From Nannocystis bainbridge (GTDB lineage: Bacteria > Myxococcota_A > Polyangia > Nannocystales > Nannocystaceae): 64,000 nt of DNA. Where the stretch lies: the NCBI RefSeq assembly GCF_028368995.1, contig NZ_JAQNDL010000002.1, positions 128,001-192,000 of the forward strand, in the 5' to 3' direction. Made by a program: the position numbers and the translations under genes. The notes under the pieces are model-generated. The model was not told where the DNA came from. It made no database searches and saw nothing but the letters and a program-made list of their open reading frames with translations. Shown piece after piece: positions 625 through 59,285 of the stretch (position 1 is its first letter; every line of letters begins with the position of its first letter).

Positions 625-718
625 CTCCATGGCGAAATGGACAGGTCGAAATGGATATGGTGAAAAGGACATGGCGGATGCGCCATGTCCTGTTCGCCAT
701 GTCCTTGCGGTCATGGCC
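625..718. repeat. 14-bp-period CATG array (TGTCY-N4-RGACA family)
   Basis: Junction tetramers at 628, 642 (CAGG), 656 (TATG), 670, 684, 698, 712; between convergent genes. Confidence 0.85.
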
Positions 719-3485
719 GCGGAGGCGGCTTCGGGCGGGCGGCGGCGCGGGTCAGCAGGCGCTCGCTGGCGGCCAGCTGGCGGGCGAAGCTGGCGCCGGC
801 GCTGCGGTAGAACGCCAGCGCGGCGCCGAGGTGCGGGCGGGCGGCGGCGATGGCGGGAGGCGTGGCGGTCAGCATGGCCTCGGCGAGGGTGCGGTGGGCG
901 CGAGCGAGGCGCGGGGCCCAGTGCGGGTCGGCCTCGGCGAGCGGGGTGAGCTCGGCGACGGCGGCGGCGAGCGGGACGCGGGCCTCGAGCGGGCGATCGC
1001 GCATGAGCAAGTTCTGGCCGAGGACGAGGTGCAGCTCGGCGAGCTCGTCGCTCGACCAGGTGGCGTCCGGCAGGCGGTCCAGCGTGGCCCGCAGGTGCTC
1101 GACGGCGGTGTCGTCGTCGAACGGGCCGGCCAGGCCGCGATAGCCGGCCAGGAGCGTGGCCTCGGGGCCGAACAGGCGGGTGCCGGACAGCTCCGACAGC
1201 TCGGCGGCGGCGCGGAAGACGGAGGCGGCGTCGTCGTCGTCGCCGATCTCGATGGCGGCGCGGCCGAGGTGAAAGAGGCACCGCGTGCGCCGCACGAGGT
1301 CGTCGGGCAAGAACCGCTCGAGCGCGACGCAGCCGCTCTGGAGGATCGACCACGCCTCGCCAGGCTCGGCCAGCTGAGCCGCGGTGATCCGGGCCTCGAT
1401 GGTGGCGGGGTGGACGACGCCGAGCTCGGCGTCGAAGATCTCGAGCGCGCGGGCGAGCAGCTCGTCGCGCGGGCGGCCCGGATCGGTGACGGCGGCGAGG
1501 TCGAGCAGGGTGGAGCCGACGTCGCGGTGGCCGACCGACAGCGCGGCCTGGCGCACGCCGAGGGCCTCGGTGAAGTAGCGCCGGGCCTCGACGGTGTTGC
1601 GCTGGGCGAGGTGGGCGACGCCGAGGTTGTGGAGGACGAGGCCGCGCAGGGCGTCGGGGTCGGCGCCGCGCGAGGCGAGGGCGAGGGCGAGGGGCTCGTC
1701 GGCGAGGGCGCGGCCGACTGTCTCGGGACGCCGACCGACAGCGACGATCCGCAAGGCGACGGCCTCGGCCGCGATCGCGTCGCCGCGCGACTCGATGCCG
1801 CTGCGCATGGCCCGGGTGAGCCACTCGAGCTCCTGGCCGGTCTCCTCGGCGGTGTTGAGCGAGAGCCGCCCGCGCAGCAAGGCGACCTCGGCGCGCAGCG
1901 GGGCGTAGCCGACCTGCTCGGCGGCGGCCTCGATGTCGACGGCCTCCTCGACGGCCTCGTGGACCCGACCGAGCCGGGCCAGCGCCTCGGCCCGGGCCAT
2001 GTGATCGCGGAGGTCGGCGACCCGCTCGCCGAGGTCGGGGTCGTCGGGCGCAGGCGGCTCGGCCTTGAGGAAGGCGAGGTTGTGGCAGGCGGAGGGCGGC
2101 ACGAGGTCGCTGGCAGCGCCGAGCGCCCGCGGGGCCATGTCCATGTCGGCGATCGAGAGCGCTTTGACGGTGGCGTCGAAGGCGTCGCGCCGGCGCTCGA
2201 GGCAGCGCCGCTGGCGATCGAGGAGGGCCTCGGTGTAGCGGCCCTGGTGCTCGGCGAGGCAGGTGTCGCGGTGGTTCTCGGCCCAGGCGGCGGCGAACCG
2301 ATCGAGCTTGTCGGCGACCTTCGGCCACAGCACGGCGGCGTAGTGAGGAGCCGCGTCGCGCAGGGCGGTGGCGACGGCGTTGCGCTGAGCAGGACCCCAG
2401 ACGCGGGCGATCTCGGCGTCGGCGTCGGCACACGGCGATTCGGCGGAGGCCTCGGGCACGACGGCGAGACCGGCGGCGCCGGCGGTGAGGGCGAGCGCCA
2501 CGGCGGCGCCGACGAGCCGCCAGGTCCGACCGTGCGACGGGGCGAGCGCGCCGAGCAGGGCCTCCATCGACGGGTAGCGATCACGCGGCTCGGTCTTGAG
2601 GCCGCGCATGAGGGCGCCGACCAACCAGGCGGGCACGCCATGGTTGCGCGGAGGTGGCCGCGGCGGGCCGCTGGTGATCGCGTGGGAGAGGGCGAGGATG
2701 TCGTTGCCGGCGAACGGCGGCAGGCCGAACAGGGCCTCGTAGAGCGCGACGCAGAAGCTGAACTGATCGGAGGCGGGCTGGGCCGGGCCGCCGCGCCAGC
2801 GCTCGGGCGCGAGATAAGCGGGGGTGCCGAGGATGTCGTCGTCGTCCTCGCCAGTGAGGCGCGCGCGCATGCTCTGGTTGGCGCTCTGGCCCGACAGCTC
2901 GAGCAGGCTCGGACGATCGGGGGTGGCGCGCACGAGGCCGAAATCGAGGACGCAGGCGCGACCGGTGGCGTCGATCATGACGTTGCCGGGCTTGAAGTCG
3001 CGATGCAAAAGGCCGACGCCGTGCGCGGCGGCGAGGCCCCGCGCGGCCTGGGTGAAGATGTCGTGGATCTCGCGCCAGGTGCGTGGGCCGGCGGCGAGCC
3101 AGGCAGGCAAGGCAGCGCCGCGGATCAGCTCCATGGCGATGTAGACCTGACCCTTGACGACGCCGGCTTCGAGCACGGTGATGACGTTGGGGTGGCTGAC
3201 CCCGGCCATCGCCTGGGCCTCGCGCAGCAGCCGGATCTGGCCCCTGGAGCCGGTGTCGGGCAAGACCTTGATGGCGATCTTGCGATCGAGGAGCTCGTCG
3301 TAGGCGGCGTAGACGGCCGCCGTTCCGCCGCCGAGCCGCTCGAGGATGGTGAACCGACCGAGCCGCGGAGGCAGGGTCGCAGGGATGATCGCGACACCAG
3401 GCAGCGACTGCGTGATGTCCACCGAGATCCCCGACGCGTCCGTATCGGGAATGATGACGCTCATGGGATTCGACCAGTCTTGCAC
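711..3485 (-). CDS. Ser/Thr protein kinase with TM segment and C-terminal TPR-like helical repeats
   Basis: IAIK, HRDFKPGN, DFG, GTPAYLAPE and DQFS motifs; hydrophobic segment; TPR-like repeats; start may be 3464. Confidence 0.9.
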   Translation of the reverse strand: MQDWSNPMSVIIPDTDASGISVDITQSLPGVAIIPATLPPRLGRFTILERLGGGTAAVYAAYDELLDRKIAIKVLPDTGSRGQIRLLREAQAMAGVSHPNVITVLEAGVVKGQVYIAMELIRGAALPAWLAAGPRTWREIHDIFTQAARGLAAAHGVGLLHRDFKPGNVMIDATGRACVLDFGLVRATPDRPSLLELSGQSANQSMRARLTGEDDDDILGTPAYLAPERWRGGPAQPASDQFSFCVALYEALFGLPPFAGNDILALSHAITSGPPRPPPRNHGVPAWLVGALMRGLKTEPRDRYPSMEALLGALAPSHGRTWRLVGAAVALALTAGAAGLAVVPEASAESPCADADAEIARVWGPAQRNAVATALRDAAPHYAAVLWPKVADKLDRFAAAWAENHRDTCLAEHQGRYTEALLDRQRRCLERRRDAFDATVKALSIADMDMAPRALGAASDLVPPSACHNLAFLKAEPPAPDDPDLGERVADLRDHMARAEALARLGRVHEAVEEAVDIEAAAEQVGYAPLRAEVALLRGRLSLNTAEETGQELEWLTRAMRSGIESRGDAIAAEAVALRIVAVGRRPETVGRALADEPLALALASRGADPDALRGLVLHNLGVAHLAQRNTVEARRYFTEALGVRQAALSVGHRDVGSTLLDLAAVTDPGRPRDELLARALEIFDAELGVVHPATIEARITAAQLAEPGEAWSILQSGCVALERFLPDDLVRRTRCLFHLGRAAIEIGDDDDAASVFRAAAELSELSGTRLFGPEATLLAGYRGLAGPFDDDTAVEHLRATLDRLPDATWSSDELAELHLVLGQNLLMRDRPLEARVPLAAAVAELTPLAEADPHWAPRLARAHRTLAEAMLTATPPAIAAARPHLGAALAFYRSAGASFARQLAASERLLTRAAARPKPPPRP

Positions 3486-3975
3486 CGACCTCCACGTACG
3501 CCGGGACCACGGGGTCGCGGGGCCGATGTAGGCCGTTCAAGCGGCGCGGCGGCCTCGTGGGGCGCGTCCGCTCGATGGTCACGCGCAGCGGGCGCTCGTC
3601 ATGACCTGTCCTCGAGTTCTAAAAATCGGGCGTTGGTGGAATGGCGGCAGAGGGCCGCGCAAGGCGGTGTGGGCGCGATCTGTGGTTGATGGGGTGCGGC
3701 GTATGTGCGCCGGATCAATTCGATCGCGCGGACGCGAGATGTGGATCGTGGCACGGCGATTTCCGTCGCCGACGCTCCGTCGCGGCGCTCGCGTCGCGGT
3801 CGCGTCCGCGATCGCGGCGGGCCTCGTGATCGCGCCGAAGCCGAGGCCGGGGCCGCGCGCCCGGGGGCGCGACGGCGAAGGGCGGTACCGGTGTTCCGCC
3901 GCCGCGCGGCGCGTGCGGAGGATGGCCGCCGGTCCGGATTGCGCGCGGCGGCGGCAACGGGCACCTTCGGCCCGG

Positions 3976-5271
3976 ATGTCGAAGGTCTCCGACGGCCCCG
4001 CGAAAACTCCGTCCCGCGCCCGCGTGCTGCGAGGTCGCCTGCTGTGCCCCGATCCGCGGCAGGCGAAGATCGAGCGCATCGCCGACGGCCTGCTGACGAT
4101 CGGCGAGGACGGCCGGATCGTGTCGATCGCGCCGGCGCCGGAGGATTGCCCGCTGCCGCCGTCGTACCCGGGCGCGGTGATCCTGCCCGGCTTCGTCGAC
4201 ACCCACGTGCATTTCCCGCAGACGCGCGTGATCGGCAGCGCGAGCGGGCCGCTGCTGCGCTGGCTCGAGCGGTCCGTGTTCCCGGAGGAGCTGCGGTTTC
4301 ACAGCCTGCGCTACGCGGCGGCGGTGGCGTGGGAGTTCTGCGAGGCGCTGATCCGCCAGGGCACCACGTGCGCGGCGATCTACGCCTCGAGCCACGAGGC
4401 GGCCACCGACGTGCTGTTCCACGAGCTCGACCGCTGCGGGCTGCGAGCATTGGTCGGCATGACGCTGATGGACCGCGGGGCGCCGGAGGGGCTGCTGGTC
4501 GGCGTCGACGAGGCGATGGCGGGCTGCGAGCGGCTGATCGCGCGCTGGCACGGTCACGACGGGCGGCTCGGCTTCTGCGTCACGCCGCGGTTCGCCCTCA
4601 GCTGCACGCCGGGGCTGCTGCGCGCGGCGGGGCGGCTGGCCGAGACCCACGGCCTGCATGTCCAGACGCACCTGTCCGAAAATACAGACGAGCTGCGGCA
4701 CACGGCGGCGGCGTTCCCGGCGGCGCGTGATTATCTCGAGGTGTACGAGTCGCACGGGCTCAGCGGGCCGCGCTCGTTGTTCGCGCACTGCGTGCACCTG
4801 TCGGACGGCGAGTGGGACCGACTGGCGGCGACCGGCGGCGCGGTGGCCCATTGCCCCGACAGCAACTTCTTCCTCGGCAGCGGCTGCATGCGCCTGCGCG
4901 CGGCCACCGGGCGATCGATCCGCGTCGGCCTCGGCACCGACGTGGGCGCGGGCCGCAGCTTCTCGCTGCGCCAGGTGATCGCGAGCGCCTACGACGCGAG
5001 CCTCATCGCGGGGGCGCCCGCGACGGCCGAGGAACTGCTGTGGCTGGCGACGCGGGGCGGAGCCTGCGCGTTGGGGATGGCGGACGAGCTCGGTTGCCTG
5101 CAGCCCGGTCACGCGGCCGATCTGGCGGTGATCGACGCGCCCGAGATCGCGGGCGCCGAGGGGCTGTTCGACGCGCTGGCGTTCCGCCGCGACGCGGCGC
5201 CCGCTCGCGCGGTGTTCGTGCGCGGGGCGCTGCTCCGCGGGGCGGTCGCTGCGGGTCCCGAGGTGGTGTAA
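3976..5271 (+). CDS. guaD: Guanine deaminase (amidohydrolase superfamily)
   Basis: PGFVDTHVHFPQ, TPRFALSC, QTHLSEN, AHCPDSN, GLGTDVGAG; start uncertain (3922 or 3976). Confidence 0.85.
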   Translation: MSKVSDGPAKTPSRARVLRGRLLCPDPRQAKIERIADGLLTIGEDGRIVSIAPAPEDCPLPPSYPGAVILPGFVDTHVHFPQTRVIGSASGPLLRWLERSVFPEELRFHSLRYAAAVAWEFCEALIRQGTTCAAIYASSHEAATDVLFHELDRCGLRALVGMTLMDRGAPEGLLVGVDEAMAGCERLIARWHGHDGRLGFCVTPRFALSCTPGLLRAAGRLAETHGLHVQTHLSENTDELRHTAAAFPAARDYLEVYESHGLSGPRSLFAHCVHLSDGEWDRLAATGGAVAHCPDSNFFLGSGCMRLRAATGRSIRVGLGTDVGAGRSFSLRQVIASAYDASLIAGAPATAEELLWLATRGGACALGMADELGCLQPGHAADLAVIDAPEIAGAEGLFDALAFRRDAAPARAVFVRGALLRGAVAAGPEVV

Positions 5272-5279
5272 ACCGGAGC

Positions 5280-6701: not shown

Positions 6702-6713
6702 GGCTGGCCTTTG

Positions 6714-6751
6714 GCGCATGTCGTGAGGGACATGCGCGAAGGGACATGTAC
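6714..6751. repeat. 14-bp-period CATG array
   Basis: CATG at 6717, 6731, 6745; fills the gap between the convergent ALDH and SDR genes. Confidence 0.8.
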
Positions 6752-6756
6752 CACTG

Positions 6757-7554: not shown

Positions 7555-7642
7555 TGGATCGATCTCCGATCGAGCACACGCGCGGCGCGACGTTCGCCGC
7601 CGACGATTGCCCGGACCGCGAAGATGGGCCCAGTATGCAGGG

Positions 7643-8113
7643 GTGACAAGGACGCACGAAGAAGTGAGCCGCTCACCTGCAGGTAAGTCGGAGCCGTGGA
7701 CGCCGGAGACCGCGGCGGAGGCCGTGAGCGAGGCGCTGGCGCTGCTCGAGGGGCGCTGGAAGCTGCGCATCTTGTTCCACCTGTTCGGTGGCAAGGTGCT
7801 GCGCTACTCGGAGCTGGAGCGCGCCATCCCGGAGGTGTCGCAGAAGATGCTGGCGCAGCAGCTGCGCAAGCTCGAGAGCGACGGGCTGGTCCGCCGCGAG
7901 GTGTTCGGCGAGGTGCCGCCGCGCGTGGAGTATCGCCTCACGGAGTGGGGGCAGTCGCTGTGCCCGGTGCTCGATGCGCTGCTGCAGTGGCACGCGCGGC
8001 GGGAGGGGAGCGATGCGGAGACCGCCGACGCTGCGGGCGAGGCGGTCGCGGTCTCGTCAGGGGCAGGGCGGCAGAGATGTCCTGAAGGCCAGGTCGATGA
8101 CGCGAGGCGGTGA
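7643..8113 (+). CDS. HxlR-family winged-helix transcriptional regulator, divergent from the SDR
   Basis: GRWKLRIL...RYSELERAIPEVSQKMLAQQLRKLESDGLV...PPRVEYRLT; start approximate. Confidence 0.88.
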   Translation: MTRTHEEVSRSPAGKSEPWTPETAAEAVSEALALLEGRWKLRILFHLFGGKVLRYSELERAIPEVSQKMLAQQLRKLESDGLVRREVFGEVPPRVEYRLTEWGQSLCPVLDALLQWHARREGSDAETADAAGEAVAVSSGAGRQRCPEGQVDDARR

Positions 8114-8285
8114 TGTCGAGGCTGAGTTCGCGGCCGGTCGTCGGCGGCGGGCCGGAGCGGGCAGGTCGAAGTGGCTGTCCTGAAGGCCAGGTCGACGGCG
8201 GCGAGTCGGAGCTGGGAACTCGATGCGGCCGGCTGTGCTCGCGGCCGGGCGGGAGCGAAATAAGCTGTCTCTCAGGACAGGTCGA
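8073..8285. repeat. Loose cluster of TGTCY-N4-RGACA-like units
   Basis: TGTCCtgaaGGCCA twice and TGTCTctcaGGACA. Confidence 0.65.
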
Positions 8286-9139: not shown

Positions 9140-9360
9140 GCAGGTGAGAGCTGGCCTTCGGGACAGGTCGAAGCCGCGACCCGCTGGCCTTCGGGGCGGT
9201 CGGAGGGACGATAGACGCCGCGTATGGCTGTCTTTCGAGACAGGTGGCGAGTCGCCGGGGCAGCGCCGAAGCTGTCCTTCGGGACAGATTTATAATCGCG
9301 ACGACGGCGAGGCCGACACAAAGGCCGACCTCGCCGCGGGGCTGTCTTTCGGGTCAGGTG
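9140..9360. repeat. Loose cluster of TGTCY-N4-RGACA-like units
   Basis: TGGCCttcgGGACA, TGTCTttcgAGACA, TGTCCttcgGGACA, TGTCTttcgGGTCA. Confidence 0.7.
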
Positions 9361-13453: not shown

Positions 13454-13519
13454 GGGCATGTCGCATCGGACATGTTTCATCGGACATGTCAACGAGGACA
13501 TGCCGCGAGGGACATGTCC
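13454..13519. repeat. 14-bp-period CATG array
   Basis: CATG at 13457, 13471, 13485, 13499, 13513; abuts the stop of the convergent gene. Confidence 0.9.
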
Positions 13520-15115: not shown

Positions 15116-15826
15116 TCAGGGCTGCGCGGCCGGTTCATTACAAAGCGTGGCCGCCCGGTCGACCAGAGGCGAGCCCGGGAATTGTCGCGGGTAGCTGGTG
15201 GCGAGCTGGCGCGCGGCGTCGCGCTGGCCGAGGGCGCAGCGGGCCTCGATCTCGAGCAGGCCGCGCTCGGCCGCCAGGATCCCGCCGGGGAACCGCCTGG
15301 CGTGCTCCTCGAGGAGCTGCAGGCGCTCGGCGGGCCCGGCCAGCTTGGCCCGCCGTAGCAGGTCGACCTCGGCGGCGACGCTGTCCTCACGTGCAGGCCG
15401 GCGGGTCTTGGAGGTGTCCGAAGGGACAGGTTTGTCGGCGGGCGGCTCGTCAGGCGCGACCTCGAGGATGGGCTCGGGGGCCGGGGCGCGGGCCTCATCG
15501 GCGCGGCGGACGGGCTCGGCGGTGTGCGAGGCGTCGCCCTCGCGGGCCTGGTAGGGCGCGGCGACGTGGTTTTGCGGCGCCTCGCCGCCCCGCGTGACGG
15601 CCCAGGTCAGGGCCAGCAAGACGCCGGCGGCCAGAGCGAAGCCGGCGAACACGCGCGGGGCGAGGCGCGAACGAGGATGTGCTTCGTCGTCGAGGTCGTC
15701 GCTGCCGACCTCGTCGCGGCGCTGCTCGAGCGCGGCGAGGACACGATCGGCGATGGCGCGGTCGGGCGACTCGGCCCTGCGAAATGCGGCCAGGCGCGCC
15801 CGCGCCTCCGAACTCAGCGGTTCCAT
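15116..15826 (-). CDS. Putative membrane-anchored anti-sigma-like protein with C-terminal TPR-like helices
   Basis: Directly after the ECF sigma gene; one TM segment, Pro linker, EEHARRFPGGILAAER...CALG. Confidence 0.7.
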   Translation of the reverse strand: MEPLSSEARARLAAFRRAESPDRAIADRVLAALEQRRDEVGSDDLDDEAHPRSRLAPRVFAGFALAAGVLLALTWAVTRGGEAPQNHVAAPYQAREGDASHTAEPVRRADEARAPAPEPILEVAPDEPPADKPVPSDTSKTRRPAREDSVAAEVDLLRRAKLAGPAERLQLLEEHARRFPGGILAAERGLLEIEARCALGQRDAARQLATSYPRQFPGSPLVDRAATLCNEPAAQP

Positions 15827-16395
15827 GCAGCTTGCCTCCCATCCGTCCGCTCGGTCTCGGCGATGGCGCGCTCGAACTCGGCGCGAGCGGCCCGCAGACG
15901 CGAATAGACGGTGTTCAGTTTGACATCGAGGGCCTGGGAGATCTCCGGCGCCGTGAAGCCCTCGAGGTCGGCCAGGATGAAGACCATGCGCTTGTCGTTG
16001 TCGAGGCTGTCGAGGAAGCGCTGAACGAACTCAGCGGCCTCGGCGCGCTCGGCGTCGCGCTCGCGCGGTTGGTGGGTATGGACGACGGCGAACGCCTGGA
16101 TCCGGCGCTCGTGGCGCCGCAGGCCGCGGCGGAAATCGCTGGCGACCCGCCGGGCGGTGCCGAACAGCCAGCTCCGCAGCGAGATCTGCGGATCGAGGCC
16201 CGGGAGGCGGCGGTGGAGCACGAGGAACACGTCCTGGGCGGCGTCCTCGAGCTGGTCGTAAGGGACCCCGAGGCGACGGAGGATCCGCCAGACGAGGTCG
16301 AAGTAAGCGTAGTAGACGGTGGCGAACCCGCGCTGCGCGTGCTCCTCGGGGCCAGGGCCAGGTATGGGCGGCTGAAGCTTCAGCACGGCAGTCAC
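15814..16395 (-). CDS. ECF RNA polymerase sigma factor
   Basis: EDAAQDVF, LRSWLFG, VFILADLEG...EIS...NTVYSRLRAAR; GTG start overlaps the upstream TGA. Confidence 0.9.
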   Translation of the reverse strand: MTAVLKLQPPIPGPGPEEHAQRGFATVYYAYFDLVWRILRRLGVPYDQLEDAAQDVFLVLHRRLPGLDPQISLRSWLFGTARRVASDFRRGLRRHERRIQAFAVVHTHQPRERDAERAEAAEFVQRFLDSLDNDKRMVFILADLEGFTAPEISQALDVKLNTVYSRLRAARAEFERAIAETERTDGRQAAWNR

Positions 16396-17456: not shown

Positions 17457-17733
17457 GAGCGCAGCAGCGTCGGATGGTAGGCCCGAGCGCGGTCGGGACG
17501 CCAGGGGCTGGGGCGGGGTCCGTGGGCCGTTCGGCGGCGAGGTTGCGATCTGTCTCTCGGGACATGTGATTGCCGGGCCTGCCGGAGGTCAGGGCGGTTC
17601 CGAGCCGGCTCGCCGGCGCGCTCGCAGGCAGGCCGCGGGGGTGTCAGCGCGGGCGAGGCGGCGGCGTTGTGGGGCTGCACGCCGGGACCCGGGGCTGTCA
17701 AGCTGACCCGAGTCCCGGCCCAAGGAGACGCGC

Positions 17734-19941: not shown

Positions 19942-20021
19942 GGCCCTGGCCTTTGGGGCATGTCCTCAAAGACCTGGCGCGAGGAGCATGTCCCGGGGGA
20001 CATGCCCCTTCGGACTAGATG
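19942..20021. repeat. 14-bp-period CATG array
   Basis: Junctions at 19945 (CCTG), 19959, 19973 (CCTG), 19987, 20001, 20015 (CTAG). Confidence 0.85.
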
Positions 20022-21341: not shown

Positions 21342-21357
21342 GGCCGGGTGGTCGATG

Positions 21358-21438
21358 GGACATGTCCTCGAGGACAGTCCGGATAAAGCTGCTCGGTGAA
21401 GCTGAGGATGTCCCTCAGGACATGTCTTCGAGGACGGG
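21358..21438. repeat. Cluster of TGTCY-N4-RGACA units
   Basis: TGTCCtcgaGGACA at 21363; TGTCCctcaGGACA-TGTCTtcgaGGACG at 21409-21436. Confidence 0.75.
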
Positions 21439-22288: not shown

Positions 22289-22305
22289 GCGCGGGCCTCC
22301 GGGCA

Positions 22306-22450
22306 GGATGTCCCGCGGGACAGGTGAGAGAGGCGCGGGGCCGGGGCGAGCGGGGTCGGGCAGGATGTCCCGTGAGGCAGGTCGAGACACCGGTGAGACA
22401 GGGGCGTGTTCGCGCAGGATGTCCCACGGGACATGTCTTCTTGGACGTGT
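22306..22450. repeat. Cluster of TGTCY-N4-RGACA units between exbD and tonB
   Basis: TGTCCcgcgGGACA, TGTCCcgtgAGGCA, TGTCCcacgGGACA-TGTCTtcttGGACG. Confidence 0.75.
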
Positions 22451-22469
22451 GCGGAGGACGCCTGGCGAG

Positions 22470-22901
22470 TCACGGGGTCGCCTCCGGGGCTGGCGCGGGG
22501 GCCAGGGTGGCGAAGGCGACGCGGTAGACGCCGCCGCGCTGGAGGGCATCGATGGTGGCGATGACGCGGCGGTGGGCGACCTCGCCGTCGGCGTGGATGA
22601 CGGCGCGGACCTGGGGGCTGCGGGCGCGCACGGCGGCGGCGCGGCGGACGAGGTCGTCGTCGCCGGCGAGCGGCTCGCCGTCGACGAGGGTGGCACCGCG
22701 CTCGGGGACGATGACGCTCAGCACGACCTGGACCTCGCCGGCGGTGCTGGCCTCCGGCAGGTCCATCTCGACCGCGGGGGTGACGATGATCTTGGCGGTG
22801 ACGATGAAGATGATGAGCAGGACCAGGACGACGTCGACCATCGGCGTGACGTTGATGCCGACGATGAGGCCGCCCGGGTCGCCGCTGGAGTGACCGGCCA
22901 T
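22470..22901 (-). CDS. exbD: Biopolymer transport protein ExbD/TolR
   Basis: INVTPMVDVVLVLLIIF, VIHAD. Confidence 0.9.
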   Translation of the reverse strand: MAGHSSGDPGGLIVGINVTPMVDVVLVLLIIFIVTAKIIVTPAVEMDLPEASTAGEVQVVLSVIVPERGATLVDGEPLAGDDDLVRRAAAVRARSPQVRAVIHADGEVAHRRVIATIDALQRGGVYRVAFATLAPAPAPEATP

Positions 22902-23594: not shown

Positions 23595-24323
23595 TCACTC
23601 CTCGGCGGTCCAGGCCAGCCGCGGCGGGACGGCGATCATGGCGAAGCGCACGGCCGCCAGGGCGTCGGCGGCGGGCGAGGCCGGGTCTTCGGCGGCGAGG
23701 GCGTTGAGGTCGTGCGGGCCGGGGCCGAGCGCCGCGAGCTCGTCGAACTCGACGCCGGCCCACCAGGCGGCGCCGTCGACGGTGACCTCGAGCGCGCCGC
23801 CAGGGTCGAGCTCGAACGGGCCGATCCGCAGGCCCTCGAGGGTGCGGCTGCCGCGGAGCACGGGGGCGACGTCGAGGTCGGCGGTGAACTCGAAGGACAT
23901 GTCCCCGGAGACAGCCGTGCCGGCGAACCGCGCCGCGCGCCCGCCGGGGGCGCCCTCCTGCGCGCGCGGCTTGGCCTGCGTCTTGAGCCAGGTGACGCCG
24001 TAGTCGAGCATGGCCGAGCGGACCTGGCCGGGCAGGACCTCGAGCTCGCCGAGCGGCTGCGGCTGGGGGTCGAGCAGGTCGACGGCGGCGACGGCGGCGA
24101 ACTCGGCGGCCGCGGTGGCGCACAGCTCGGAGGACGCGGCCGCGGTGGCGCACAGGTAGAGCGGGCCGAGGCCGAGCTCGGCGCGCGTGAGGGTGACGGT
24201 CCAGGCGCCCACGGTCAGCTCGGTCGCGGCCCCGCGCGCCCGCAGCGGGGCCCGAAAGGCCGGCTCGCCGGTGGCGCCGCAGGCGGCGCAGAGCAGCAGG
24301 AGGATGGCTGGTCGAAGGGACAT
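23595..24323 (-). CDS. Lipoprotein associated with the TonB-dependent receptor
   Basis: LCAAC lipobox; beta-rich; lies between the TBDR and exbB. Confidence 0.75.
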   Translation of the reverse strand: MSLRPAILLLLCAACGATGEPAFRAPLRARGAATELTVGAWTVTLTRAELGLGPLYLCATAAASSELCATAAAEFAAVAAVDLLDPQPQPLGELEVLPGQVRSAMLDYGVTWLKTQAKPRAQEGAPGGRAARFAGTAVSGDMSFEFTADLDVAPVLRGSRTLEGLRIGPFELDPGGALEVTVDGAAWWAGVEFDELAALGPGPHDLNALAAEDPASPAADALAAVRFAMIAVPPRLAWTAEE

Positions 24324-24381
24324 GCGCGAAAGGACCGGTGACGAGGGACAGGTGTGAGAGGACAGGTCCGAAGAGGCAGGT
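24304..24381. repeat. 14-bp-period array filling the TBDR-lipoprotein spacer
   Basis: Junctions at 24321 (CATG), 24335, 24349, 24363, 24377 (mostly GGACAGGT). Confidence 0.75.
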
Positions 24382-27221: not shown

Positions 27222-28655
27222 TCACGGGTCCGGAGGCCGGTCGCCGCCAGCGACGTCGGGCGCGCCGGCGGTGGCGGGCCGCGCATCGCCGTCGATGTCG
27301 GTCTGCGGGTCGCCCGGCTGCCAGCGGGCGCGGCCGGCGAGCGCGCCGCCGTCGCCCGCGAGGTGGAGCAGGCCGGCGTCCCAGCCGGCGAAGATCGGCG
27401 AGACCTCGTTGGCCTGGATCAAGTGGGTGTTCTTGTCGGGGTTGGCGAACGGCCCGAGGGTCACGACCGAGTCGCGGATGTCGACGGCGCTGGGGACACA
27501 ATCGAAGGTGTCGACGAGGACGTGGCTGAGGAGGGCGGAGTTGCGGGCGACGAGGGTGGCGGTGCCGTCGAGGCAGGTGAAGAGGCCGAACATGTGCTGG
27601 GTGATGTCGCCGAGCGTGGTGTAGACGAGGTCGGCCGCGGCGGCGCTGCCGATCGCCAGCGCCGGGCCCATGTTGAGGTGGGCGACGAGGCTGTTCTCGA
27701 GCCGCAAGGTGCCGCCGTCCTCGACGAGCATGCCCTCGAGGTTGAGCCGGAGCTCGCTGCGGCGCAGCACGACGTCGCAGTCGGACACGGCGACGGCGCG
27801 GCCGGTGAAGCCGAGGATGGCGGAGTCGTCGAGCCAAAGATCGGCGGCGGCGCTGCAGCGGACGGCGGCGCTGCCCTGGCCGCCCTCGATCACGATCTGC
27901 GAGAGATAGAGCTCGCTGTCGATCGGCGGGCGAGCGAGGCCGAGGCGGATCACGGGGTCGGCGTCGACGGTGAACACGACGCCAGGCCCGCCGAGCACGG
28001 CGATCCGGCGCCCGCCTTCGCTCACCTCGATGCCGGCCTGGTAGAGGCCGGGGGCGAGGTGGAACACGAGGTGGGTGGTGTCGAAGAACTGGCCGTGCGC
28101 CTGGGCGACCGAGCAGCACGGCTGGGCGAACGAGCACGGCTGATCGCTGCAGGCGCTGCTCGGGTCGACGTAGGCGTGCGAGGTGGCTTCGTCCGGGAAG
28201 CAGAGGCCGTCGTCGAGCTCGCAGGCGGTCTCGGGGCATTCGGCGTGCTCGCGGCAGCCGCGGCAGACGTGGTCCACCGGGTCGCACACGCGGCCGCCGC
28301 AGGTGGCGCTGTCGATGCACTCGACGCACTGGCCGGCGTGACACTGCAGGCCGGGCTCGCAGTCGACGTCGCCCTGGCAGGGACAGATGTCGAGGGTGCA
28401 GGGCTCGAGGGTGGTGCTGGTGCCGGTCGGCGGCTCGGTGGCGACGCCGGTGGTGGTAGTGGTGGTGGTGTCGGTGTCGGCCTCGCCGGTGGTCGGCTCG
28501 ACGGCGGTGGTGCCGGGCTCGGTGGCGGTGGCCGGCGGCTCGGTGGTGTCGCCGCTGGTCGGCCCGGCGGTGCCCGGGTCGCTGCCGGTGGGGCTGAAGC
28601 AGGCGGTCAGGAGGAGGGCTGAACCGAAGGACAGGTAGGATGTCTTCACGGTCAT
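27222..28655 (-). CDS. Lipoprotein: Thr-rich stalk, Cys-rich repeats, right-handed beta-helix domain
   Basis: LLTAC lipobox, poly-Thr, Cys repeats, C-terminal DIDGDARP..PDVAGGD motif. Confidence 0.8.
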   Translation of the reverse strand: MTVKTSYLSFGSALLLTACFSPTGSDPGTAGPTSGDTTEPPATATEPGTTAVEPTTGEADTDTTTTTTTGVATEPPTGTSTTLEPCTLDICPCQGDVDCEPGLQCHAGQCVECIDSATCGGRVCDPVDHVCRGCREHAECPETACELDDGLCFPDEATSHAYVDPSSACSDQPCSFAQPCCSVAQAHGQFFDTTHLVFHLAPGLYQAGIEVSEGGRRIAVLGGPGVVFTVDADPVIRLGLARPPIDSELYLSQIVIEGGQGSAAVRCSAAADLWLDDSAILGFTGRAVAVSDCDVVLRRSELRLNLEGMLVEDGGTLRLENSLVAHLNMGPALAIGSAAAADLVYTTLGDITQHMFGLFTCLDGTATLVARNSALLSHVLVDTFDCVPSAVDIRDSVVTLGPFANPDKNTHLIQANEVSPIFAGWDAGLLHLAGDGGALAGRARWQPGDPQTDIDGDARPATAGAPDVAGGDRPPDP

Positions 28656-28700
28656 GCTCTTGAGGACAGGGTCATCGGGTCATGGATCGAGGGACAGGCG
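28636..28700. repeat. 14-bp-period array overlapping a start codon
   Basis: Junctions at 28639, 28653, 28667, 28681, 28695. Confidence 0.7.
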
Positions 28701-28815: not shown

Positions 28816-30519
<1,704 letters not shown>

Positions 30520-31090
30520 GCGTAGACTGGCTTACCTACACCAGCCGTGGCCGATCTGCACGCTAGAACGGAGTCCGCTTCTGGAGCGAGGCGCAGAACG
30601 GGCGCGCCGGCGTCAGCGGGCGGATCTGCGCTGAAACGGCGCCTGCGGGGGCGCTGCAGCGAATCGTCCGCGGCGCGGGACGAGCCGGCGTGCGGGCCTC
30701 GAGCGGCCGGTGGGTGTGCGGGATCCTCCTCCCGCGACGCGGTGCGAAGGCCGTCCAGGCGCGTGGCTGCAGGGCGCCAGCGACCGCCGCGCCGGCGTCA
30801 CGGGCCGCAGCGATCCGCGGGCGAAGCACGGGCGCGCCGAGCTCGAGGGCATGGCACAGGCCAGGCGCGAGCGGATCGGGCGGGTCGAGGTGATGTACAC
30901 TCCCGCCGGTTTCTCCCCGGATGCCGCTTCGCCCGCAACCCGCTCGCCGCCGTCGTCCACGGCCGCGGCGGCCCCCTTCGGCCCCGCTCGCAGCCCGGCG
31001 GCGCTCTCGTTGCCACGTGTCGTCCGGCTCGCGGCGGCGCGGCTGACCGGACCGTTCCGACATGTCCTTTCGGACACCTCCCCCCACGCC

Positions 31091-31981: not shown

Positions 31982-31993
31982 GGCGGTCTGGAG

Positions 31994-32075
31994 GGGCATG
32001 TCTGGAGGGGCATGTCCCCAGGGGCATGTCTGCGGGGACATGTCTCAGAAGGGGCATGTCTGATGGGACATGTTC
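31994..32075. repeat. 14-bp-period CATG array
   Basis: CATG at 31997, 32011, 32025, 32039, then 32055 (16-bp step), 32069. Confidence 0.9.
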
Positions 32076-32169
32076 CAGAGGAACAGCAGCGGGCGTCACG
32101 CCTGGCGGCGCCATCGCGTCACGCGTGGAGCGCGGGCGCCATCGCGTAGAGCGGCCTTCGGGGAGCGCC

Positions 32170-32288
32170 GGAGCTGTTCACAGGGACATGCTCGATCGAG
32201 CATGCCCTGGCGGGCATGTCTGAACAGACATGTCCTGGCGGACATGTCTGAACGGCCATGTCCTGGCGGACATGCCCGTTCGGGCAGC
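32170..32288. repeat. 14-bp-period CATG array (longest in the window)
   Basis: CATG at 32187, 32201, 32215, 32229, 32243, 32257, 32271; degenerate ends at 32173 and 32285. Confidence 0.92.
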
Positions 32289-33902
32289 TCACTCGCCGCC
32301 GAGGCAGACGCCGTCGCGGCGGGGGTCGCCGAAGCCGACCAGGCGGCCGTCCCGGGTGCGCTGGACGGTGTGCACGCCGCCGAAGAACATGTTGAGCTCG
32401 GGCCAGGCGGTGGTGCGGGCGAACAGGCCGGCGAGGGCCTCGGCGGCGGCGGGCGAGAAGCCGGCCTCGAAGCTGACGTGGTCGTCCTCGACGTGGATCC
32501 GCGGGGCGGCGATCGCCTCGGCCAGCGGCATGCCGAAGTCGAGCACGTTGGAGACGACCTGCAGGACGGCGGTGCGGATCCGCTTGGAGCCGCCGCTGCC
32601 GCACACGAGCAGGCTGCCGTCGTCGCCGACGATCGCGGTCGGCGACATCATCGACGCCAGCCGCTGGTCGAGCGGCCAGGCGTGCGGGCCGGGCGGGTTC
32701 ACGTCGTCCTCGCCGAGCATGTTGTTGAGCATCATGCCGGTGCCGGGCACGATCTCGCCGCAGCCCTCGCCGTTGCTGACGGTCACCGAAGCGGCGTTGC
32801 CGGCGGCGTCGATGACGCTGATGTGGGTGGTGCCGCGGCTGCGCAGCGGGCCGGCCAGGGCGGCGGCGTGGGCCGCCAGCAGGTCGCCGCCGAGCCAGAC
32901 CGCCTCGATGCCCTCGCGCGGCGGGCCGGCGGCCGCGCGGGCGCGCACGGTCTCGGCCTGGACGCGGGCCAGCAGGGCCGCGTGCTCGGCTGTCTGAAAG
33001 CCCATGGCCTTCGGGTCATGTCCCGAGAGCAAGGCGAGGGCAAAGGCGATCATCAGCCCGCCGGCGGCCGGCGGCGGGTTGGTCAGCAGGGTGGCGTCGC
33101 GGTAGCGCAGGCGCAGCGGGGCGCGGGCCTGGACGCGGTAGGCGGCGAGGTCGTCGGCGGTGAGGTGACCGCCGGCCTCGCGGTTCTGGCGGACGATCGC
33201 GGCGGCGACGTCGCCGCGGTAGAACAGGTCCTCGCCCTCGCGCGCGAGCTGCTCGAGCATGTCCCCGAGGACAGGATTGAAGAGGCGCGCGCCGGCCTTG
33301 GGCGGCGCCGGGGCGCCGCTCAGCGTGGCCGTGGGGTCGCCGAAGATCGCGCGCGCGGCCGGCTGCTCGAGGTAGATCGGCGCGACCAGCGTCATGAGGT
33401 ACGCCATGAACGGCGACACGGCGATGCCGTCGCGGGCAGCCTGCACGGCCGGGGCGGTGATGACGGGCATCGGCAGGCGCGCGAGCTCGCGGTGGACCGC
33501 GAACATGCCGGCGACGAGGCCCGGCGTGGCGGCGCAGCCGACCCCGACGTGGAACGCCTGCTGCGCGGTGCCCCAGTCGGTGACCACCTCGCGCGCGCAC
33601 GCCTCGGCCTGCGGCCGGCGCACCCGCGGGGTGTGCACGAAGGCGTCGTAGAGCCGCGGCTCCTGGCCGGCCGGGAGCGCGAGGATGAAGCCGCCGCCGC
33701 CGGGCGAGGCGAGCACCGGCTCGGCGACGCAGGCGGCCATCAGCGCCGCGAGCACGGCGTCGAACGCGTTGCCACCGGCCGCGAGCGCGTGCATCGCGGC
33801 CGCGGCGGTGACGGGGTGACCGGCAGCGACGCAGCCGCGGCGGTCGTGATGGATCTCGGGTGGCGTGTCCGGTGTGTAACGTGCGTGAGGGGTCGCGCGC
33901 AA
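32289..33902 (-). CDS. ggt: Gamma-glutamyltransferase family protein
   Basis: GCVAAGHP, GGNAFDA, GGGGF, TTHISVID (autocleavage Thr), NNMLGE, SMMSPT, GSGGS; TTG start. Confidence 0.88.
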   Translation of the reverse strand: MRATPHARYTPDTPPEIHHDRRGCVAAGHPVTAAAAMHALAAGGNAFDAVLAALMAACVAEPVLASPGGGGFILALPAGQEPRLYDAFVHTPRVRRPQAEACAREVVTDWGTAQQAFHVGVGCAATPGLVAGMFAVHRELARLPMPVITAPAVQAARDGIAVSPFMAYLMTLVAPIYLEQPAARAIFGDPTATLSGAPAPPKAGARLFNPVLGDMLEQLAREGEDLFYRGDVAAAIVRQNREAGGHLTADDLAAYRVQARAPLRLRYRDATLLTNPPPAAGGLMIAFALALLSGHDPKAMGFQTAEHAALLARVQAETVRARAAAGPPREGIEAVWLGGDLLAAHAAALAGPLRSRGTTHISVIDAAGNAASVTVSNGEGCGEIVPGTGMMLNNMLGEDDVNPPGPHAWPLDQRLASMMSPTAIVGDDGSLLVCGSGGSKRIRTAVLQVVSNVLDFGMPLAEAIAAPRIHVEDDHVSFEAGFSPAAAEALAGLFARTTAWPELNMFFGGVHTVQRTRDGRLVGFGDPRRDGVCLGGE

Positions 33903-34866: not shown

Positions 34867-34940
34867 GATGTCCCGTGGGACATGCGCCGATGGCCATGTC
34901 CCGCAGCGCCTGTCCCTACAGGCATGTCTGAACGAACAGG
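34864..34940. repeat. 14-bp-period array in the mtnP-pfkB spacer
   Basis: Junctions at 34867, 34881, 34895, 34909, 34923, 34937. Confidence 0.85.
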
Positions 34941-37023: not shown

Positions 37024-40000
37024 ATGGGCGACGCAGGGACAGCGGACCCAGCCAAGTACCTCGTCACCGGGCTGCTCCGCGAGAGCTCCGGCGCCTGCAT
37101 CTACCGCGCGGTTCGAGTCGAGGACGATCGCGCGGTGGTCATCAAGACGGTCGACCCGCGGCTCTGTCCGGCGCGGGAGCTCGAGCGGCTGCGGGCGGAG
37201 TACGAGCTCGGGCGCGCGCTGGACCTCGCGGTCACTGTCAAGCCGATCGCGCTCGACACCTATCGCGGGCTGCCGGCGCTGGTGCTCGAGCACTTCGACG
37301 GGGTGTTCCTCGAGCAGCTGCTGACGACAGAGCCGCTGGCGATCGAGCGCTTCCTGACGCTGGCGATCGCCATCGCCGGCGCGGTCGAGGCGCTGCACCG
37401 GCGCGACGTGGTCCACATGGATCTCCGGCCGGACAACATCGTGGTCGATCCGGAGCGCGGCGAGGTCAAGCTCGCCAACCTGGGGAGCCCCGGTACGCTG
37501 CAGGACGCCTCGCGGCCGGCGCAGAGCCCCGGGATCCCGACCGAATCACTGGCGTACATGTCGCCCGAGCAGACCGGGCGGCTGAACCGCCCGCTCGACT
37601 GCCGCACCGACCTTTATTCGCTGGGCGTCACGTTCTATCGGATGCTGACGGGGCGCCTACCGTTCCGCGCCCGCGATCCGCTCGAGTGGGTGCACTGCCA
37701 CCTGGCGCGACGGGTGACGCCGCCGGCGTCGCTGCGGCCGGCGGTGCCGGCGGCGGTGTCGGCGATCGTGGTCAAGCTGCTGGCCAAGGTGGCGGAGGAC
37801 CGCTACCAGAGCGCGCGCGGGCTCCGTTGCGATCTCGAGCGGTGCCTGGCCGAGTGGCGGGAGCACGGGCGCGTCGAGGCGTTCCCGCTCGGCGAAGATG
37901 ACCTGTCCGAACGGCCATCCGAGCCGCAGGAGCTGGTCGGCCGCGAGCGCGAGCTGGCCGCCCTGACCGGCGCGTTCGAGGCGATGCTCGAGACCGGCGC
38001 GCCGGGGCTGGTGTGCGTGTCGGGTTATTCGGGGATCGGCAAGTCGTCGCTGGTCCACCGGCTGCGGCGGCCGATCGCGCAGGCGCGCGGCTATTTTCTC
38101 GCCGGCAAGTTCGATCAGTACCAGCGCGGCATCCCGTACGCGACGATCTCACAGGCGTTCCGCGGGCTGGTTCACGACATCCTCGCCGAGCCGGAGGCGC
38201 GGGTGGGCGAGTGGCGCGCACGACTGACGGCGGCGCTCGGGCTGAACGCGCGGCTGTGCGTCGACATCATCCCGGAGCTGGCGCTCATCGTCGGCGAGCA
38301 GCCGCCGGTGTCGGAGCTGTCGGGGACGGAGGCGCAGCTCCGGTTTCACCGCGTGTTCCGACAATTCGTCGCGGTGTTCGCGGCCCGGGAGCATCCGGTG
38401 GCGCTGTTCCTCGACGACCTGCAGTGGGTCGATCCGGCCAGCCTCGCGCTGCTCGTCGATCTGATCACGCACCCCGACGTGCACCACTTCTTGTGGATCG
38501 CGGCGTACCGCGACAACGAGGTGACGACCGGGCACCCGTTGCTGGCGGCGCTGGACGAGGTGCGAGCGGCGAAGGTGCCGGTCCGCGTCATCGAGCTCGC
38601 TCCGCTGACCGAAGAGAACGTCGTAGCGATCGTCAGCGCGACCTTCGGCGGCCGCGTGCGCGGGGCGGAGGACCTGGCGCGGCTCGTGCACGACAAGACC
38701 GGCGGCAACCCGTTCTTCGCCTTGCAGTTCCTGAGCATGCTGCACCGGGAGGGGCTGGTCGCGCTCGACCTGTCCTCGGGGACATGGTCCGGAGACCTGC
38801 CGCGGATCCGCGCCAAGACCTCGACGAGCAACGTCGCCGAGCTGGTGGTGGGCAACCTGCAGCAGCTGTCCGCGTCGGCGCAGGAGGCCCTCGAGCTCGC
38901 CGCGTGCCTCGGCGGCGTGACCGAGGTCGAGCTGCTCGCGGCGCTCGGCGGGCGGTCCGCGGAGGCGGTGCAGGGCGACCTGAAGGCGGCGGTCCGCGCG
39001 GGCCTGATGCTGCGCGACGGCGACGCCTACAAGTTCGCGCACGACCGGGTGCAGGAGGCGGCGTTCTCCCTCATGCCGGCGCACGAGCGGGCGGCGGTGC
39101 ACCTGCGGGTCGGGCGGCTGCTGCTGGATCGCCTGTCGCACGAGCAGCTGGAGGCGCGGGTGTTCGAGGTCGCCGGTCACTTCGAGCGCGGCGGGCACCT
39201 GCTCGACGGCGCGGAGGAGCGGGTTCGGGTCGCCGAGGTCCAGCTGGCGGCCGGGCGCAAGGCGAGGGCCTCGACCGCCTACGCGGCGGCCGTGCGCTAC
39301 TTCTCGGCGGGGATCGAGCTGCTCGGGCCGGAGGCGTGGGCCGAGCAGCACGCGCTGGCGTTCGCGCTGGGGTTCGGCCAGGCCGAATGTGAGTACCTGC
39401 AGGGCCGATTCGAAGCGGCGGAGGAGCGATTCGCGGCGCTGTTCGAGCGCGCCCGCACGCGCGGCGAACGGGCGGAGATCCGGCGGGTGGAGGTCGATCT
39501 TTTCACCAGCCGGCAGGAGCTGCGCACGGCGGTCGAGCGCGGGCTCGACGGCCTGCGACTGCTCGGCGTCGAGGTGGCGCCGCACCCGACGCGGGCGCAG
39601 GTGCTGGCCGAGGTGCAGGCGATCTGGGACGCCATGGGCGAGCGACGGATCGAGGACCTGATCGATCTGCCGCCGCTCACGGACCCGGACATGCGCGCGG
39701 CGCTGGCGATCCTCGCGGTGCTGTTCGCGCCGACGCTCAACACCGATCCCCATCTGCCGGCGCTCTGTTACTGCCGCATGGTCGAGATCAGCCTCCGCCA
39801 CGGCAACGGCGACGGCTCCGCGCTCGGCTACGCGTACTTCGGGATGGTGCTGGGCCCGGCGTTCGGCCGCTATCACGCGGGCTATCGCTTCGGCGAGCTC
39901 GGGTACGCGCTGGCCGAGCGCAGCGGGGTGATGGCGTACCGCGCCAAGCTTCACTTTATCTTCGGCGATTGCATCCGCTTCTGGACGCGACACCTGCGGG

Positions 40001-51328: not shown

Positions 51329-51406
51329 CGGCATGTCCACGAGGACATGTCTAAAAAGAAATGTGCTTAGGAGCATGTCGATGAAGACATGTCGAATGGG
51401 ACATAC
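51329..51406. repeat. 14-bp-period CATG array
   Basis: Junctions at 51332, 51346, 51360 (AATG), 51374, 51388, 51402 (CATA); in a divergent intergenic region. Confidence 0.85.
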
Positions 51407-54193: not shown

Positions 54194-54198
54194 TCTCG

Positions 54199-54276
54199 TA
54201 AGGTGTCGGAAGGGACATGCTCGTGAGAGCATGTCCCTTTATTTATGGTCGAAGGGGCATGCCCGATGGGGCAGCC
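54199..54276. repeat. 14-bp-period CATG array
   Basis: Junctions at 54202, 54216, 54230, 54244, 54258, 54272. Confidence 0.85.
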
Positions 54277-55109: not shown

Positions 55110-55220
55110 CGGGATGCTTCATGGGACATGTAGAGAGGCATGTTTGATAGGACATGTCTTTAAGGGCATGTCTTTGGAGGCGTCGAATAATGTCCTTAAG
55201 GACATGTTCCGAAGGTCACG
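55110..55220. repeat. 14-bp-period CATG array in three registers
   Basis: 55113, 55127; then 55139, 55153, 55167; then 55189, 55203, 55217. Confidence 0.85.
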
Positions 55221-55538: not shown

Positions 55539-57962
<2,424 letters not shown>

Positions 57963-58014
57963 ATCTCGCCGCCGTTGCCAGCGCCGCGGTCATGGCCTAT
58001 GACCGGGCGTGCGC

Positions 58015-59160: not shown

Positions 59161-59193
59161 CTCGCGGGCGCCTGGCGCGCTCGCTCATGAAAC

Positions 59194-59285
59194 CGAGATG
59201 TCCGAAAGGACATGTTTGATGAGGCATGTCGCTTCGAGCATGGCTCTTCGGACATGCCTGAACAGGCATGTCCGAAAGCCCAGGC
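59194..59285. repeat. 14-bp-period CATG array
   Basis: Junctions at 59197, 59211, 59225, 59239, 59253, 59267, 59281; between convergent genes. Confidence 0.9.

Follow-up and report, generated by a model that had tools for sequence, protein, structure and literature searches.

Short DNA sites that abut in exact register are known from MetJ metboxes, omega-repressor heptads, and ParR-parC, whose arrays are limited to a handful of loci on a replicon and regulate a single operon or plasmid. Sites such as RacA ram and the ParB/Noc-type palindromes number in the tens and are confined to a chromosome region. Repetitive extragenic palindromic (REP) elements and their doublets (REPINs) are defined, along with the REP-associated tyrosine transposases (RAYTs), in PMC3337134 and PMC3116915. 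Uptake signal sequence (USS) pairs in terminators and other uncharacterised gene-end palindromes are treated in PMC5217627. The element described here is a 14-bp palindrome, TGTCY-N4-RGACA (TGTCYNNNNRGACA), which recurs in a 64-kb stretch of Nannocystis bainbridge DNA (hereafter the window; positions 128001-192000 of contig C3). The source genome comprises 11.05 Mb in five contigs with 71.5% G+C. Throughout this genome the palindrome forms arrays in an exact 14-bp lattice and is concentrated behind stop codons. We tentatively favour, at somewhat less than an even chance, the view that its units are sites of a candidate dimeric DNA-binding protein that would polymerise at transcription-unit ends.

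The Nannocystis arrays resemble metbox- and parC-type arrays in having abutting short repeats in exact register, a variable unit number, and a geometry that fits protein-protein contacts along DNA. Different from those systems, they are located at thousands of gene ends. With RacA ram and ParB/Noc-type sites they share the 14-bp two-fold symmetry and the outer TG...CA, which is also the most conserved part in Nannocystis; this is a likeness of geometry only. Compared with RacA ram, ParB parS, Noc NBS, and MatP matS, the ~12,600 Nannocystis units lie on all contigs and follow gene ends. The comparison with RacA ram or ParB/Noc-type regional organisers, drawn from the geometry in an earlier inspection of the window made from its letters (the sequence-only reading), does not hold, since the sites occur on all five contigs and gene ends, not a chromosome region, dominate. 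That reading also knew of no comparable myxobacterial element, and we found no publication on one: literature searches on Nannocystis, Sorangium, myxobacterial REPs, half-site operators, and gene-end palindromes turned up no description of it. The main text of RepRanger (PMC12306157) names neither Myxococc- nor Nannocystis, and its supplementary tables might list such genomes.

We counted 27 copies of the strict motif TGTCYNNNNRGACA in the window. In 100 dinucleotide-preserving shuffles the mean was 0.14 and the maximum 2, with none (0/100) reaching 27; the excess over the ~0.1 chance matches estimated beforehand is therefore real. Genome-wide there are 2,982 copies with the N4 spacer, and each of the other spacers from N0 to N12 gives 3-29. 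The central 4 bp vary freely, as had been noticed in the window, with 206 of the 256 possible tetramers seen among the 2,982 strict matches. Flanking bases widen the motif to an 18-bp palindrome, C(A/C)TGTCC-N4-GGACA(T/G)G, around the 14-bp core. A symmetrised profile of this unit, refined in four rounds and applied with a cut-off of at least 11 bits, identifies 12,630 units genome-wide, compared with 131 in the reversed, non-complemented genome; this control ignores codon structure, and for coding copies the spacer comparison is the safer one. The abundance implied by the sequence-only reading was accordingly too low. The information in the profile is maximal at T3 and G4 (mirrored by C15 and A16), lower at position 5, and about zero in the four central bases. 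Two subtypes of unit can be distinguished. The CATG...CATG form makes up 70% of 6,117 array units, and the CCTG...CAGG form makes up 49% of 3,203 coding singletons and is also dominant in the sister genus g4.

The register of the units is exact. Pairs of units number 4,841 at a distance of 14 bp, 2,577 at 28 bp, 1,561 at 42 bp, and 813 at 56 bp, with 0 at 13 bp and 1 at 15 bp, so that the 14-bp register seen in the window extends to the whole genome. Neighbouring units within a cluster are separated by a multiple of 14 bp in 5,147 of 5,724 cases. Adjacent units share CATG and thereby form the junction GGACATGTCC, which is present in 956 exact copies. Of the 1,987 exact TGTCC-N4-GGACA units, 1,145 have no completed junction on either side, and 196 of the 956 exact 10-bp junctions GGACATGTCC have no partner half-site. 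As units stand alone more often than junctions do, the 14-bp unit and not the junction is the basic object. Palindromy around CATG does not reach beyond GGA/TCC (1,648 versus 1,592 ± 31 expected); the free N4 is the symmetry centre, and CATG is the junction. A lattice partner is present for 3,067 of 3,806 CATGTCC half-sites (81%), and the 739 without any compare with ~300 for a control word, ca. 2.5-fold background.

The units fall into 6,906 clusters, of which 4,231 are single units and the others contain 2-20 units. Counts of lattice spans fall up to 4 units (286), recover slightly at 5 (343), and drop sharply past 6 (46 at 7 and 11 at 8); the excess at 5 units hints at a preferred complex size of ~70-85 bp. 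We inspected the sequences flanking 343 five-unit and 178 six-unit arrays and found zero information outside the lattice. A larger composite element of the miniature inverted-repeat transposable element (MITE) kind is thereby rejected: the arrays are not part of a larger element because they have no conserved flanks. Spacers are identical in 3-5% of within-array pairs (3.1% of adjacent pairs), compared with 1.7% of random pairs. This agrees with the earlier statement that the arrays are not products of plain slippage, and recent tandem amplification accounts for a small share of arrays only.

The window contains the following profile-defined features (units scoring at least 11 bits; strand not assigned).

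628..715, array of 4 units with gaps of 28, 28, and 14 bp, convergent intergenic (profile and sequence inspection)
6717..6748, array of 2 units between convergent genes, occupied in 5/5 sister genomes with 1-3 units each (profile, comparison)
8076..8281, three single units (8076, 8174, 8264) 3' of an HxlR-type gene (profile)
9150..9358, loose cluster with units at 9150, 9227-9288 (gap 44 bp), and 9341 (profile)
13457..13516, array of 4 units in exact 14-bp register (profile)
17549..17566, single unit in a divergent intergenic region, a conserved island in 6/6 genomes with unconserved flanks (alignment)
19945..20004, array of 3 units in a convergent region, 3-4 units in sister genomes (profile, comparison)
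21347..21438, two arrays of 2 units (profile)
22307..22449, loose cluster with units at 22307, 22364, and 22418-22449 (profile)
24307..24380, two isolated units, at 24307 and 24363; among the twelve arrays listed earlier this is the weakest (profile)
28618..28698, array of 4 units with gaps of 21, 14, and 28 bp (profile)
29125..29184, two units 42 bp apart within a Ser/Thr-kinase-like gene, encoding PVP(S/A)D in a low-complexity linker (profile, translation)
31061..31078, single unit ending 12 bp 5' of the called start codon at 31091, conserved in 6/6 genomes (alignment)
31997..32072, array of 4 units just 3' of the stop codon of a + strand gene ending at 31981 (profile)
32173..32288, array of 8 units adjoining the stop codon of the gamma-glutamyltranspeptidase gene (32289-33794, - strand) (profile)
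32989..33034, array of 3 units within the gamma-glutamyltranspeptidase gene, without indels relative to distant orthologues (profile, alignment)
34867..34940, array of 3 units beginning at a stop codon in an 87-89-bp region between co-directional genes, with unit positions the same in 6 genomes and differing N4 centres (profile, alignment)
51332..51405, array of 5 units in exact register (profile)
54202..54275, array of 4 units in a convergent region (profile)
55113..55220, five units in three registers with gaps of 26, 14, 36, and 14 bp (profile)
59197..59284, array of 6 units in exact register, flanked by convergent hydrolase and terpene synthase genes (profile)

Each of the twelve arrays listed in the sequence-only reading has a profile-defined cluster within 5 bp of its start, aside from the one at 28636, which falls within 28618-28698. 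The three-register array placed at 55110 corresponds to the multi-register cluster 55113-55220, and the looser clusters near 8073, 9140, 21358, and 22306 are all recovered by the profile. The seven CATG at exact 14-bp steps are located at 32187, 32201, 32215, 32229, 32243, 32257, and 32271; within this array, 32201-32274 shows a 28-bp period with 91% match. The statement that the arrays are intergenic holds for 61% of units, and fails for the rest; of the strict matches, 7 of 27 in the window and 1,083 of 2,982 in the genome lie in called coding sequence.

The location of units was analysed with our own simple codon-statistics gene caller, which gives 7,717 genes and 82% coding sequence, with exact stops and approximate starts. 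A unit starts within 50 bp after the stop codon of 29.5% of 6,547 confident genes. Its position has two peaks, one with the stop TGA inside the first half-site as TG-plus-one (152 genes) and one directly after the stop (139 genes), and decays within ~20 bp. Convergent intergenic regions are occupied most often (832/1,240, or 67%; 10.1 units per kb), followed by tandem regions (1,267/3,476; 3.5 units per kb) and divergent regions (336/1,413; 1.2 units per kb). The median distance of units in tandem regions is 77 bp from the upstream stop and 215 bp from the downstream start. Between the convergent genes at 31982-32288 there are two arrays, one at the stop codon of each gene.

Called coding sequence holds 4,895 of the 12,630 units (~39%; 0.54 units per kb). 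These units are mostly singletons, occupy all three frames, are evenly distributed over the length of genes, and fall in variable protein segments; their density grows with gene length from 0.23 to 0.75 per kb. The spacers N1, N7, and N10, which have the same frame phase as N4, give 9, 3, and 12 matches genome-wide, compared with 1,083 strict coding matches at N4. Because these spacers stay rare, the coding copies are not an effect of codon usage.

The arms of the array units are conserved in sequence and are free of pairing constraint. Mirrored arm positions 3-7 have a mutual information of at most 0.01 bit (14,074 units), and their Watson-Crick frequencies equal the independent expectation. 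Among 6,117 intergenic array units, the number of Watson-Crick pairs per unit is 4.965 of 7, compared with 4.966 when the arms are shuffled, and a perfect 5-bp core stem is present in 14.0% versus 14.0 ± 0.4% after arm shuffling. The sole marked covariation, between positions 2 and 17, reflects the two subtypes. Stem mismatches, without compensation, are present in over half of the units. A Rfam scan of the window returned no family at its gathering score.

We then compared the window with the syntenic region of five close species, in which flanking genes are 92-94% identical. Intergenic regions occupied by units stay occupied across the six species with similar unit numbers, and regions empty in the source genome are empty in the sisters too, the exceptions being 3465-4023 and one unit in G007 at 7555-7723. 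From 122 aligned orthologous intergenic unit pairs, 7 with gaps were set aside. In the 115 gap-free pairs, T3, G4, C15, and A16 are 93-99% identical, the remaining arm positions 66-93%, and the central four bases 53-63%. Since pairing cannot explain 99% conserved G4 and C15 beside free centres, a factor that reads the sequence must exist. In coding sequence, third-codon positions are identical at 166 of 180 core bases (92.2%), compared with 2,738 of 3,249 flanking ones (84.3%). As a separate observation, third positions within the free N4 centre of coding units are identical in 66 of 100 cases (66.0%), below the 84.3% of nearby third positions.

The gamma-glutamyltranspeptidase locus illustrates how arrays arise and turn over. 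The 3-unit array inside the gene must have arisen by substitutions, as there is no indel relative to distant orthologues that are 60% identical. Some arrays turn over: 3' of this gene, the six genomes carry 2-8 units with unalignable spacers, namely 2-6 units in 5/5 close sisters and 8 in the source genome, and the array is absent from three more distant genomes of the same genus. These three, G009, G006, and G008, share instead, upstream of the neighbour of the gamma-glutamyltranspeptidase gene, a different conserved repeat of TTGCA-type words (…GATGTTTGTTGCAG…ATTGCAAGAGCA…), which is a possible operator.

The element is confined to few relatives. A search with a double-unit pattern in one genome per prokaryote species gave matches nearly all in Nannocystis, Nannocystaceae, or Myxococcales records, with three isolated others among the 78 loci listed. 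The 18-mer is present in 10/10 genomes of the same genus with 2-266 copies (369 in the source genome); beyond the genus, it drops to 2-5 copies in two genera and is missing from 17 more genomes. We counted TGTCCN4GGACA family-wide in 41 genomes of 17 genera. Genus g1 has 333-1,987 copies (control 2-5), g2 87-169 (control 2-10), g4 67-295 (control 1-4), and g28 6-20 (control 2-7), and 13 other genera have 0-10 (control 0-6). The motif is thus enriched in three genera of the family, and arrays are essentially a Nannocystis feature: double units number 0, 0, 4, 0, and 0 in five genomes outside the genus, compared with 144 in the source genome. In 400 kb of G013 (genus g4), we found 122 units versus 3 in the control. 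Of these, 100 are in genes, and the intergenic ones, mostly singletons, lie 1-35 bp 3' of stop codons. Since sister genera such as that of G013 also have the single-site motif and its placement at gene ends, both are older than Nannocystis; polymerisation into arrays is, judging from these counts, a Nannocystis innovation.

A dimeric binder of duplex DNA is preferred because the word is two-fold symmetric, its halves are independent, its spacer is fixed, and its polymerisation register is exact. We infer that the reader is a protein acting on duplex DNA, that its binding is cooperative, and that its role is at gene ends. It would be an abundant, lineage-specific dimer that recognises the word by sequence and not by fold. 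Each monomer may read one TGTCC half-site, in which TG is near-invariant, and leave the four central bases uncontacted. Dimers would be placed only 14 bp apart because neighbouring sites overlap by their CATG ends; each 14-bp step would correspond to ~120 degrees of helical rotation, and three steps to four helical turns. Cooperative loading of the protein could then take place on rows of 2-6 sites. Such a row, one at each gene end and immediately 3' of the stop codon, would mark or insulate the end of a transcription unit, and, being symmetric, it may act both ways, as a roadblock to read-through transcription or as a supercoiling barrier. The single sites in genes and promoters would be copies of lower occupancy, an older state common to the two sister genera. 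The proposal of selected tandem sites for a cooperative dimeric protein, made in the sequence-only reading, is to this extent strengthened by the independent arms (at most 0.01 bit), by the conservation of arms (93-99%) relative to centre (53-63%), and by the exact register; a hairpin and an uptake signal remain as its rivals.

Several observations weigh against such a protein. No cognate was found by a Pfam scan of window genes or by the PadR, upstream-site, and codon-adaptation routes. In the window, 30 of the 46 called genes were scanned against Pfam without a standout cognate, the DNA-binding proteins being of HxlR, ECF sigma, and ArsR types; the earlier statement that no cognate is identifiable there is upheld for these 30. 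The PadR-family operator, which we take to be ATGT-N8-ACAT, offered a lead that was rejected, as PF03551 has 0 matches in the source genome (13 candidates scored) and the same search matches 14/14 control genomes. Autoregulation was followed through 46 small genes with a strong site at most 120 bp upstream in divergent regions, and these show no DNA-binding theme; one of them has a TetR-like N-terminus by eye. A ranking by codon adaptation was equally unrevealing, the codon usage of the ribosomal-protein cluster barely differing from the genome average. No ribbon-helix-helix (RHH)-type or other oligomerising candidate turned up, though no search was aimed at the RHH family. Furthermore, ~12,600 sites would demand a very abundant protein.

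Other points on this side mostly concern RNA. Placement right behind stops is also typical of RNA-level 3'-end elements, and the location figures rest on crude gene calls with unreliable start codons. The covariation test in arrays counts less against folding than it seems, because any left arm can pair with any right arm. Gene-end singletons (n=883) have a small pairing excess, with a perfect 5-bp core in 38.3% versus 33.7 ± 1.1% expected. Among coding singletons, perfect 7-bp palindromes are rarer than expected (2.8% versus 5.3 ± 0.4%), which suggests that hairpin potential matters somewhere. On the sense strand, array units have 763 G.U-type versus 573 A.C-type mismatches, an excess that could reflect RNA tolerance or a mutational strand skew. 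Folded as RNA, the 8-unit array has a predicted energy of -78.7 kcal/mol (z = -7.4), and the 3-unit array at 34867 has a predicted z of -2.5.

A different explanation, which we regard as unlikely, is that the units are a REP-like, semi-selfish hairpin repeat whose stem-loops, as single-stranded DNA or RNA at gene ends, would protect transcript 3' ends or stop transcription, and which a sequence-specific enzyme or gene conversion among copies would spread and homogenise. Like REPs, bacterial interspersed mosaic elements (BIMEs), and REPINs, the units are short palindromic words, present in hundreds to thousands of copies, that are lineage-specific, clustered, and mostly behind genes, especially convergent ones, as the densities of 10.1 (convergent), 3.5 (tandem), and 1.2 (divergent) units per kb illustrate. 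A hairpin is also consistent with the first unit adjoining the stop codon, the 2-8 units at one orthologous gene end among close species, the strong predicted RNA folding, the pairing excess of gene-end singletons along with the avoidance of perfect palindromes in genes, and canonical terminators not above chance. The enzyme expected for REPs is missing, as PF01797, the REP transposase domain, has 0 matches in the source genome (90.5% complete, 3 candidates scored) and the same search matches 6/14 control genomes; no Y1/RAYT transposase is thus found. The architecture differs as well, since Nannocystis units of 14-18 bp overlap in an exact 14-bp lattice, whereas REPINs are inverted doublets with a spacer. 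The Nannocystis loop is free, with spacers nearly all different, and the array arms lack covariation, a mean of 4.97 of 7 positions pairing as with shuffled arms. Even gene-end singletons have no G.U preference on the sense strand (137 G.U-type versus 153 A.C-type mismatches). Location is not strictly extragenic, as 39% of units are genic, and substitutions, not indels, produced the genic copies. Fast colonisation of such DNA would be expected of a mobile element, yet lower-G+C 100-kb stretches hold 12-32 units compared with ~115, and site positions are conserved across six species. Finally, 2.9 million viral contigs yielded one isolated match, on a contig of 66% G+C without other units, which we judge to be chance.

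It is quite improbable that the units accumulate, where tolerated, as an uptake-signal-like motif under a DNA-level drive, e.g., natural transformation in which own-species DNA is taken up preferentially and then recombined. The likeness to USS of Pasteurellaceae and DNA uptake sequences (DUS) of Neisseriaceae includes a density of about one unit per kb on all contigs, copies that are both genic and intergenic, genus variants, and fewer copies in foreign-looking DNA. Of the units, 39% are in coding sequence in all three frames and variable protein segments, longer genes carry them at higher density (from 0.23 up to 0.75 per kb), the sister-genus variants are mostly CCTG...CAGG and mostly in genes, and density is lower in low-G+C, island-like stretches. 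Inverted or symmetric copies at gene ends recall the Haemophilus USS pairs in terminators, as described in PMC5217627. In contrast to an uptake word, which is single, oriented, and non-palindromic, the working Nannocystis unit is itself a palindrome with a fixed N4, its isolated half-sites are barely enriched at ~2.5x background, and it is polymerised in exact register. An uptake drive leaves the exact 14-bp lattice and the rule of one row per gene end unexplained, and the clusters are over-dispersed and uneven (coefficient of variation 1.38). That the units are ordinary intrinsic terminators sharing sequence by common descent is very improbable. In its favour, they lie 0-50 bp after stop codons as short G+C-rich inverted repeats with a 4-base loop, and hairpin-plus-T-run terminators are otherwise not above chance (6 in 20 kb versus 3.1 ± 1.8). 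Against it, only one of these 6 (22419) is a unit, there is no T/U tract, more than half of the stems are mismatched without compensation, TG and CA are 93-99% conserved although other complementary bases would pair as well, and 4,895 of 12,630 units are in genes.

Returning to a DNA-bound dimer, its most elaborate form would be a dedicated Nannocystis system in which cooperative filaments on 14-bp arrays behind about a third of genes serve as two-way roadblocks or supercoil insulators, replace classical terminators, and have grown from the dispersed single-site motif of two sister genera; this extended version we hold to be doubtful. If true, it would be a genome-wide end-of-gene signal read on DNA by sequence, a bacterial counterpart of eukaryotic and organellar roadblock terminators and insulators, and it would bear on how very G+C-rich bacteria without hairpin-plus-U terminators end their transcripts. 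On a conservative reading, the element is a new and very large dispersed repeat family of ~1.6% of an 11-Mb genome, set apart from REPs by the lack of a RAYT, the absence of pairing constraint in arrays, the free spacers, the exact lattice, and the substitution-made genic copies. The sharp motif and the cultured strains of several named Nannocystis species make it tractable. For annotation, the motif would mark transcription-unit ends in natural-product-rich genomes, and its absence would flag foreign DNA.

Each of the five contigs carries units, mostly at about 50-200 per 100 kb, and regular chromosomal spacing is rejected by the same over-dispersion of clusters. The poorest 100-kb bins have 12-32 units (genome mean ~115) and a lower G+C of 68.6-71.1%. 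Among them, C1:1.1-1.3 Mb, C5:0.4-0.5 Mb, and C1:0.5-0.6 Mb have 12-26 units per 100 kb, a G+C of 68.6-70.7%, and a poorer codon-model fit; these stretches on C1 and C5 are probably acquired islands as yet unpopulated by the motif. Only the longest arrays are concentrated, with 39 of the 72 spanning at least 7 units on contig C3, which is 18% of the genome. This contig bears the cumulative GC-skew maximum (C3:1,471,158, or 1.47 Mb), the probable replication terminus. Arrays of 10-21 units, which are more A+T-rich and degenerate and retain mainly ACATG every 14 bp, cluster near this maximum at C3 ~0.99-1.93 Mb. Such long arrays are few in four sister genomes, with 1-9 pattern matches each.

The CATG junction also coincides with predicted start codons. 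The ATG lies at unit positions 16-18 in 79 genes and at positions 2-4 in 77 genes, with echoes at +14-bp steps, a coincidence that is partly a possible artefact of start-codon choice. In the low-copy G011, perfect sites overlap likely start codons of lipoprotein genes. An autoregulated regulator was sought in G011 and G013 and rejected, as the perfect sites lie at or beside the starts of putative lipoprotein or secreted-protein genes.

Aside from the palindrome, the window contains a separate repeat with 48-bp and 27-bp periods at 26477-26644 (GGTGGTCGAAGGGGCAGGTGA-like; Tandem Repeats Finder) within a gene of 872 aa; it has two or three profile matches at 27-bp spacing, off the 14-bp lattice. 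Other genes in the window include an ECF sigma factor (15814-16386), a TonB-C/ExbD/ExbB cluster (21452-23590, - strand), a family-2 terpene synthase (59290-60237), and a prepilin peptidase of family A24 (61785-62750). An open frame of 1,899 aa spans 37024-42723.

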